Assembly (NCBI GenBank): GCA_964555185.1
Contig: CAZKRD010000001.1
Coordinates: 239,272-303,271 of the forward strand
Origin: an uncultured Candidatus Saccharibacteria bacterium
Lineage (GTDB): Bacteria; Patescibacteriota; JAQUNI01
DNA: 64,000 bases
Reading direction: 5' to 3'
The position numbers and the translations under genes were made by a program. The notes below the pieces were generated by a model that saw only the letters and a list, made by a program, of their open reading frames with translations, did no database searches and was not told the origin of the DNA. Shown one piece after another: positions 32,253-33,211 of this stretch. Numbering within the stretch: position 1 is the stretch's first letter; the number at the start of each line of letters is the position of its first letter.

Positions 32253-32804
32253 ATGAATGAGAATGAAATGAAGAAGAAAGAGTTTGAGGAGATTGCCTTC
32301 CAGTATATGGATTCGCTTTATAGCCTTGCTTTGAAAATGGCAAGGAATAACAGCGATGCACAAGATCTGGTCCAGGACGCATACTTGAAGGCTTATCGGT
32401 TCTTTGATAAGTTTGAGAAGGGTACGAATTTCAAAGCATGGTTGTTCAGGATTCTCAAGAACGCTTACATAAATAAGTGTCGCAGGACAGCCAGGCAGCC
32501 GCAAAGAGTGACTCTTTCTGAACTTGATGAGTATGATTACCCGCAAGATGACGTATCGCCTGAAGATCAAATCTTCGACGGACTTATCGGGGATGAGGTT
32601 ACTGCCGCCATAGATCAATTGCCCGAGGAGTTTCGTCTGACCATTATACTGTCAGACCTGCGGGGATTTTCATACAAGGAGGTGGCGGACATGCTCAACC
32701 GTCCATTGGGCACAGTAATGTCGAGATTGTATCGAGGACGGAGGCTTTTAAGGGAGAGTCTTAGGGATTATGCGGCAGAATTTGGTTATGCTGTCGCATC
32801 TTAG
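32253..32804 (+). CDS. RNA polymerase sigma factor, ECF subfamily
   Basis: Region 2 DAQDLVQDAYLKAYRFFDKF...FKAWLFRILKNAYINKCRR. Region 4 LPEEFRLTIILSDLRGFSYKEVADMLNRPLGTVMSRLYRGRRLL. Preceded by GGAGGG SD. Confidence 0.85.
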   Translation: MNENEMKKKEFEEIAFQYMDSLYSLALKMARNNSDAQDLVQDAYLKAYRFFDKFEKGTNFKAWLFRILKNAYINKCRRTARQPQRVTLSELDEYDYPQDDVSPEDQIFDGLIGDEVTAAIDQLPEEFRLTIILSDLRGFSYKEVADMLNRPLGTVMSRLYRGRRLLRESLRDYAAEFGYAVAS

Positions 32805-32824
32805 AGAAAAGGAGGATAAGAAAA

Positions 32825-33211
32825 ATGGCTGTTACGAAAAAGGAAATAATAGAAACAATTGATGATATGCCAACCCTGGATCTACGTCGCCTGGTCGAAG
32901 GCATGGGAAAGAGATTCGGCGTACCTGTGACTATGCCAACTCCCGCGAAGACAGGAGCATCCCAGGAAATGCAAGAAGAGGCGACAGAATTTGATGTCGT
33001 GCTTACCTCTGTTGGTCTCAAGAAGATCGTGATAATCAAGGAAGTAAGAGCGATCGCGGAATTGGACTTAAGATCTTCGAAGGCGTTGGTTGATGATGTA
33101 GAGGAAGGTGGAGAAGCAGTGATCAAATCCATGGTCAGCAAGGCAGTAGCAGAAGCATATCAGAAACAAATAGAGCAATGGGGAGCAACAGTAAAACTTC
33201 GTCCTTCTTAG
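32825..33211 (+). CDS. ribosomal protein bL12 (L7/L12) paralog, second full-length copy, co-oriented 20 nt downstream of the ECF sigma factor
   Basis: Aligns along its whole length with the canonical rplL at 15721 (KKEIIETIDDMPTLDLRRLVEGMGKRFGV vs [28 protein letters not shown]; EFDVVLTSVGLKKIVIIKEVRAIAELDLRSSKALVDD vs [37 protein letters not shown]). SD AAAGGAGGA upstream. Confidence 0.7.
   Translation: MAVTKKEIIETIDDMPTLDLRRLVEGMGKRFGVPVTMPTPAKTGASQEMQEEATEFDVVLTSVGLKKIVIIKEVRAIAELDLRSSKALVDDVEEGGEAVIKSMVSKAVAEAYQKQIEQWGATVKLRPS

Follow-up and report, generated by a model that had tools for sequence, protein, structure and literature searches.

Why would a second gene for the ribosomal stalk protein bL12 (L7/L12) stand directly behind the gene of a sigma factor? 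This arrangement occurs in a 64,000-nucleotide stretch of DNA (hereafter the window) from an uncultured marine Candidatus Saccharibacteria bacterium, whose sample appears in a survey of marine microbiomes. There, the gene of an extracytoplasmic function (ECF) sigma factor is followed, after a gap of 20 nucleotides (nt) and with a ribosome-binding site of its own, by a gene for a bL12-like protein, just as an earlier note on this DNA had described; the resident canonical bL12 gene, rplL, lies elsewhere in the window beside rplJ (Table 1). The reading that we favour, with slightly less than an even chance of being right, is that the two genes form an operon in which an orphan, stress-type (SigH/SigR-like) ECF sigma is produced together with a foreign bL12 copy (a xenolog) acting as a co-expressed alternative or mixed stalk protein.

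Is the product of the second gene a bL12 at all? Its C-terminal domain matches PF00542 far above the gathering threshold (62.3 bits vs 25.9, E 5.6e-17), and solved bL12 chains match the protein end to end. The N-terminal domain, hinge and C-terminal domain all align with the resident rplL product (42% identity over 119 amino acids (aa) with MAFFT; 37% over 89 aa, E 5e-9, with BLASTP), as the earlier note had reported. In an AlphaFold2 (AF2) model, the C-terminal domain forms a beta-alpha-alpha-beta-alpha-beta fold (predicted local distance difference test, pLDDT, 84-88) that superimposes on the C-terminal domain of Escherichia coli bL12 with template-modelling (TM) scores of 0.88-0.91 and a root-mean-square deviation of 1.3-1.5 Å; the N-terminal domain is modelled as two helices at low confidence, and hinge residues 34-53 are disordered (pLDDT below 50). 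On profile and model evidence, we regard it as confirmed that the gene codes for a full-length but diverged bL12 homolog. The protein shares with canonical bL12 (PF16320 plus PF00542; TIGR00855) the three-part architecture, the fold and the residues K65, I69, K70, R73, L80 and K84. It differs in being a second copy with a sigma gene upstream and an HD-hydrolase gene downstream instead of rplJ, in scores just below the curated cut-offs, in changes at G79, K81 and E82, in a 4-aa insertion (EEGG) after helix 5, in being less acidic, and in being nearest to the bL12 of another clade.

Is the pair real, and does it recur? The same 959 bp, with the same neighbours, are found identically in a 706,972-bp European Nucleotide Archive scaffold and in three independent Logan assemblies; this identity across four other assemblies, together with recurrence in a diverged contig, rules out a chimeric contig. 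In an exhaustive phmmer scan of 1.84 billion representative proteins, only the query itself was returned at E <= 1e-30, and a single relative stood closer than background (P0244, 52% identity). Among the best matches in the representative library there were also long proteins with 5-7 tandem stretches resembling the bL12 C-terminal domain (P0241, P0242, P0245, P0250 and P0351; 423-803 aa). P0244 is encoded on a 1,375-bp Joint Genome Institute (JGI) contig, L098, from a second, diverged organism.

The gene order on L098 is that of the window: the 3' part of a sigma gene, a 17-nt gap holding AAGGGGG, the bL12-like gene and the HD-hydrolase gene. The truncated L098 sigma is 73.5% identical to the window sigma, and the two HD-hydrolase genes are 83.6% identical. 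Over the 99 sigma residues that can be compared, the window and L098 sequences agree at 72.7% of positions, against at most 61.6% with any other sequence, which makes them mutual closest relatives. A hairpin with a T-run, recognised by eye at about 728-770 of L098, lies at the same place after the bL12-like gene as in the window, and the HD gene has a promoter-like site of its own in both organisms (33291-33319 in the window, from a consensus scan). The shared order, the affinity of the sigmas, the hairpin and the HD promoter-like site therefore point to a two-gene operon inherited from a common ancestor. The pair is thus conserved, HD neighbour included, in one relative. Searching with a profile of the two copies gave no third operon member, and in a scan of JGI metagenomes adjacency to a sigma gene appeared only in L100, which is the same contig as L098. 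No bL12 gene occurred in any of the 80 reference-genome loci of sigma relatives.

Where did the second bL12 come from? Both copies are 42-43% identical to the resident protein, and their identity to the canonical bL12s of another clade reaches 64% (L098 copy) and 53% (window copy). This higher identity elsewhere rules out a recent duplication of rplL within the genome, and the gene is therefore a xenolog. The word paralog in the earlier note thus holds in the sense of a bL12 homolog and fails in the sense of a duplicate of the resident gene. The clade in question (P0002, P0005, P0020, P0045, P0255 and P0390-P0396) has an unusual hinge, AAMPMxGFxPAQ, and an A in place of the near-invariant G79. 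Its members lie after rplJ (P0002, L005), one of them being called as an L10-L12 fusion (P0255). This clade shares the N-terminus MAVTKEEIIE, the AAMPMxGFxPAQ hinge and the motif SLALK[D/E]AK, and the pattern P-A-x-T-x-ASQE that the window and L098 copies have in common resembles its hinge. The clade is likely to represent the donor lineage.

The earlier note had also called both genes compositionally distinct from their neighbours and had suggested horizontal acquisition. Codon usage bears out part of the first claim: the sigma and bL12-like genes have the two lowest synonymous-codon scores of the 58 open reading frames (ORFs; -0.029 each vs 0.056 +/- 0.040), and the HD gene looks native. The GC content of the pair (0.453 and 0.460) and its GC3 fall inside the range of the window (GC 0.427 +/- 0.043), so that distinctness by GC is unsupported and codon usage alone is atypical. 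A foreign origin of the bL12 copy is accordingly supported by sequence affinity and codon usage and not by GC. We found no support for a phage or mobile origin: a viral contig scan was empty, and phage records reached at most 39% identity for the bL12-like protein and at most 42% for the sigma, several of the bL12 records resembling host DNA.

Is the foreign gene maintained by selection? Comparing the window with L098, two sequences of which one is a 1.4-kb contig with a truncated sigma, we obtained dN values of 0.094 for the HD gene, 0.176 for the sigma gene and 0.378 for the bL12-like gene, with dN/dS ratios of 0.14, 0.20 and 0.29, respectively; dS of the bL12-like gene, at 1.3, is near saturation. 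For the bL12-like gene, pN/pS without correction comes to 0.48; bootstrapping gives a 95% interval of 0.36-0.64, and not one of 2000 resamples reached 1. Its two domains are constrained alike, with dN/dS ratios of 0.24 (N-terminal) and 0.23 (C-terminal). A three-point estimate from identities makes the branch of the window copy about 1.7 times longer than that of the L098 copy. Within this pairwise comparison, the substitution pattern shows purifying selection with accelerated change.

The same figures bear on the possibility that the gene is a passenger under relaxed constraint, a foreign rplL copy that came with or beside the sigma gene, has no specific role and is gradually degenerating, as would be clearest in the window lineage. 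Such a history would suit the very narrow distribution in two lineages, the atypical codon usage of both genes, the longer window branch, the lost near-invariant residues, the insertion and the sub-threshold profile scores. We nevertheless find it unlikely, as both ORFs are intact and preceded by strong ribosome-binding sites despite a dS of 1.3, each of the two domains has a pN/pS significantly lower than 1, and the C-terminal domain is predicted to fold confidently. Moreover, useless genes tend to be purged from small genomes; of this organism, only a 707-kb scaffold is known.

What does the slot behind the sigma gene normally hold? The sigma matches Sigma70_r2 (E 4.8e-18) and Sigma70_r4_2 (E 6.3e-14) and consists of regions 2 and 4 only (PF04542, residues 17-81; PF08281, residues 115-166), the composition of a group 4 ECF sigma; it scores 99.4 bits on TIGR02937 (cut-off 42.9). 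The best specific NCBIfam model is SigH_actino (TIGR02947), at 189.1 bits below its equivalog cut-off of 251.55, so that by its profile the protein is SigH-like and not a member of actinobacterial SigH; its best solved relative is Mycobacterium tuberculosis SigH. Homologs at 60-71% identity are numerous and include Candidatus Poribacteria and metagenomic lineages, and those of Ignavibacteria are about 48% identical. In 89 related loci, the gene after the sigma typically codes for a protein of about 270 aa with an anti-sigma-like N-terminus. Among the closest sigma relatives (60-71% identity), this co-directional downstream protein bears zf-HC2 and MEDS domains; in Ignavibacteria it has an anti-sigma-like N-terminus, and two examples tested gave no Pfam match. 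The pairing of such a sigma with a downstream protein of about 270 aa is widespread (loci L009-L020 and L021-L097; Poribacteria, Ignavibacteria and others).

The predicted anti-sigma in homologous loci starts between -22 and +30 nt after the sigma gene, and the bL12-like gene is co-directional and lies 20 nt (window) or 17 nt (L098) behind it. These positions support the view that it occupies the anti-sigma slot of this sigma family, and the earlier note's mention of an anti-sigma position is borne out by the predicted anti-sigma typically found there at the loci of the closest sigma homologs (46-71% identity). The locus thus resembles SigH-RshA and SigR-RsrA, systems of the zinc-associated anti-sigma (ZAS) type, in its SigH/SigR-like sigma, whose homologs have a variant with a zf-HC2 plus MEDS partner. 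It differs from them in that the downstream gene is bL12-like, without zinc-finger or MEDS domain, and that no gene for such a partner was found elsewhere in the window.

Could the xenolog then have been recruited as the regulator of the adjacent sigma, replacing the zf-HC2 plus MEDS anti-sigma and coupling sigma activity to the state of translation? The gene stands exactly where the 89 loci place an anti-sigma, and neither a homolog nor a remnant of one was found in the window by tblastn with 58 partner proteins (E <= 0.1), the matches near the sigma locus being noise only (E >= 0.16). The pair is retained in two lineages, and anti-sigmas typically evolve fast while under purifying selection. 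A family member with a role in transcription has been put forward before: MRPL12, which codes for the bL12 homolog of mitochondria, has been described as a gene that regulates mitochondrial transcription. The protein itself argues otherwise. Pfam shows L12 domains only, with no anti-sigma domain and no zf-HC2 motif (HxxxCxxC); it lacks any Cys or His and therefore cannot be a ZAS protein; and its fold matches are bL12 and ClpS only, with no structural likeness to known anti-sigmas. Recruitment as a regulator would also leave the retention of the hinge and of the factor-binding helix 4 unexplained, and ECF sigmas without anti-sigmas exist. Altogether, we consider the regulator explanation decidedly unlikely. 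Very unlikely, in our estimate, is a further version in which a bL12-derived partner would be shared between the uL10 stalk base and the sigma, so that stalk or ribosome status would gate alternative transcription.

How much of the bL12 surface has been kept? We compared both copies with 60 non-redundant canonical bL12s, in which 47 columns are at least 75% conserved (mature E. coli numbering). The L098 copy keeps 37 of these 47 columns and the resident rplL product 44. F54, G62, K65, I69, K70, R73, L78, L80 and K84 are kept in both copies, and V68I, G79 to D or S, K81R and E82 to S or D are changed in both; the donor-like clade already has A79, with D82 in many of its members. The best-conserved stretch between the two copies is helix 4 (KKIxIIKEVRAI). 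The earlier note had made its proposal depend on a uL10-binding N-terminal domain and conserved C-terminal residues; this part stands for K65, I69, K70, R73, L80 and K84, is weakened at G79, K81 and E82, and is borderline for the N-terminal domain, as detailed below. The isoelectric points of the window and L098 copies are 5.1 and 4.9, vs 4.49 +/- 0.14 in canonical bL12. The L098 copy passes TIGR00855 (121.2 bits) and carries PF16320 in its precomputed annotation.

A protein with a retained N-terminal domain, retained helix-4 residues and altered G79, K81 and E82, less acidic in both copies than canonical bL12, might also work off the ribosome. The free xenolog would then sequester translational GTPases or uL10, or tie up resident bL12 in inactive heterodimers, and so damp translation while the sigma operon is on. 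On these data such a decoy is not distinguishable from an alternative stalk protein, and of the explanations considered here we give it the slimmest chance.

Are the two genes transcribed together? The 20-nt gap, in which no terminator was found, the ribosome-binding site within it and the terminator-like hairpin downstream lead us to infer co-transcription of the sigma and bL12-like genes. The hairpin and T-run would, as a candidate intrinsic terminator, end a two-gene operon ahead of the HD gene; a simple scan had overlooked it because its loop is long. About 60 nt upstream of the sigma start lies a sigma-70-like promoter candidate, a consensus match only, in a region with 4 such sites vs 3.0 expected in shuffles. 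The SigH/R-type motif GGAA-N17-21-GTT is not enriched (43 matches vs 62 expected). A bipartite-motif count on 77 upstream regions, which would have revealed an autoregulatory ECF promoter, returned AT-rich noise and an AACGG signal only, the latter looking, by eye, like conservation at the 3' end of the gene upstream.

Table 1. Features of the sigma/bL12-like locus and of the resident stalk genes (window coordinates)
Feature	Position	Strand	Basis or remark
Ribosome-binding site of the sigma gene, GGAGGG	32240-32245	+	
ECF (group 4) sigma gene, SigH/SigR-like, 183 aa	32253..32804	+	ORF list, Pfam, NCBIfam
Spacer between sigma and bL12-like genes, 20 nt	32805..32824	+	
Ribosome-binding site of the bL12-like gene, AGGAGG	32810-32815	+	9 nt ahead of the ATG
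bL12-like gene, 128 aa	32825-33211	+	
bL12-like N-terminal domain (dimerisation/uL10-binding type), aa 1-37	32825..32935	+	PF16320, AF2 helices
bL12-like hinge, aa 38-54, PTPAKTGASQEMQEEAT, predicted disordered	32936..32986	+	pLDDT
bL12-like C-terminal domain (factor-binding type), aa 55-128, plus stop	32987..33211	+	PF00542, TM score
Candidate intrinsic terminator, hairpin then T-run	33240..33275	+	RNA fold, z-score only -1.2
Candidate sigma-70-like promoter, TTGACC-17-TATATT, TG ahead of second hexamer	32162..32190	+	Consensus scan
HD-domain phosphohydrolase gene, YedJ-like; syntenic neighbour, outside the operon	33326..33979	+	
Resident canonical rplJ	15065-15637	+	Reference
Resident canonical rplL, adjoining rplJ	15721-16140	+	TIGR00855, 139 bits

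What, then, might the operon do? If the xenolog is indeed an alternative stalk protein, the operon would have been inserted upstream of the HD-hydrolase gene in an ancestor that the two related lineages share; the zf-HC2 plus MEDS anti-sigma partner would have been lost, with the bL12 xenolog in its place. The sigma, without an anti-sigma, would be controlled through its own transcription, and the xenolog would be made whenever the sigma is made. Through its N-terminal domain, the xenolog could form dimers that bind the uL10 stalk base, or it could pair with resident bL12 in mixed dimers, and its C-terminal domain would offer translational GTPases the retained helix-4 residues within an altered helix-4/5 surface. 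The outcome would be changed factor recruitment on a subset of ribosomes. That the N-terminal domain, hinge and helix-4 residues have been kept under purifying selection finds its simplest explanation in a protein that still acts on the translation machinery; beyond this, we infer induction by stress, incorporation into ribosomes and an effect on translation.

Several observations count against an alternative stalk protein: (i) in the window copy, PF16320 reaches 24.0 bits vs a cut-off of 25, and TIGR00855, over residues 1-125, 81.3 bits vs 84.4; (ii) this copy keeps only 33 of the 47 conserved columns, and G79D, K81R and E82S lie on its factor-binding face; (iii) the net charge of its N-terminal domain is 0, vs -4.8 +/- 1.3 in canonical bL12, and the low identity of this copy to the resident bL12 (42%) makes its fit to the resident uL10 uncertain; (iv) its gene has accumulated 2-4 times the dN of its neighbours; (v) no match to the SigH/R-type motif was found upstream of the sigma gene; and (vi) among the 1.84 billion representative proteins, the bL12-like/sigma pair is known from only two lineages.

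How does the locus compare with known systems? Precedents exist for alternative ribosomal-protein (r-protein) paralogs that serve under particular conditions (PMC3353972, PMC10502375), and the closest known kind of the bL12-like gene is such a condition-specific paralog. The cases of bL31B, bL36B, the mycobacterial alternative r-protein (AltRP) operon and the Francisella bS21 paralogs share with it a diverged extra copy of an exchangeable r-protein whose gene lies outside the r-protein operons and has a link to a regulator (PMC10502375, PMC3353972). In contrast, bL31B, bL36B and the AltRPs are Zn-ribbon proteins under zinc or stationary-phase control, and according to Yutin et al. (2012) every highly diverged r-protein paralog in bacteria carries Zn-binding motifs (PMC3353972). 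bL12 has no Zn ribbon and no Zur-related feature was seen, which sets the gene apart from Zn-independent paralogs.

Phages offer a precedent for a mobile bL12: a phage-encoded bL12 was detected in E. coli 70S preparations, and ribosomes with a tagged version were not purifiable (Mizuno et al., 2019; PMC6375957). Like the window copy, it is a bL12 outside the rplJL context, mobile and under purifying selection, with a proposed replacement of the cellular copy (PMC6375957); it is often a C-terminal domain alone inside larger proteins, whereas the window copy is full length and chromosomal. MRPL12 resembles the xenolog as a bL12 family member with a reported transcription role beside the ribosome; it reportedly binds POLRMT directly. 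It acts in a eukaryotic organelle whose RNA polymerase has a single subunit and which has no sigma factor, so that the likeness is an analogy only. In the open-access literature, no paper came to light that connects bL12 to an ECF sigma or describes such an operon, in agreement with the earlier note's statement that the arrangement is undescribed, and the reviews of ribosome heterogeneity and extraribosomal r-protein functions make no mention of a bL12 paralog.

The surroundings of the locus have features of their own. Directly upstream of the sigma gene, and present in all assemblies of the organism, lies the gene of an 821-aa protein (29615-32080) with a hydrophobic, membrane-anchor-like N-terminal segment and long poly-Glu/Asp and Pro tracts, for which no Pfam or NCBIfam match was found. 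Further upstream, a tRNA-Glu gene (28536-28608) is followed by a low-GC (0.31) ORF, both within 28536-29438; an Rfam scan of the window returned two tRNAs and nothing else. On the other side, the ORF at 34688-35617 has atypical codon usage and a high GC (0.49). The whole region between tRNA-Glu and hrcA is possibly a mosaic or an island. A heat-shock cluster, hrcA-grpE-dnaK-(136 aa)-dnaJ (36827-42225), lies 3.6 kb downstream of the SigH-like sigma; a promoter motif of the SigH type was not seen ahead of this cluster. The resident rplJ-rplL region (13882-16904) is flanked by yceG and a sortase gene instead of rplKA and rpoBC, and the resident bL12 is extended at its N-terminus by about 15 aa rich in Lys. 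In a V/A-type ATPase operon (about 48677-58590), the A subunit (53207-56521, 1104 aa) is split by an intein carrying a LAGLIDADG homing endonuclease (Pfam Intein_splicing and LAGLIDADG_3).

What would such an operon mean? Only two uncultured lineages are known to carry it, which may limit its general importance. Until now, highly diverged extra copies of r-proteins in bacteria have been confined essentially to Zn-ribbon proteins (PMC3353972). bL12 is a multi-copy, exchangeable protein that recruits all translational GTPases, and a foreign second bL12 maintained by selection would be a simple route to functionally distinct ribosomes. If instead the protein were a partner of the sigma, it would define a new class of sigma regulator without an anti-sigma domain and a direct signalling link from translation to transcription. 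The association with a sigma that has no inhibitor in the window thus suggests either that transcription and translation are reprogrammed together or that the sigma has a regulator of an unprecedented kind.

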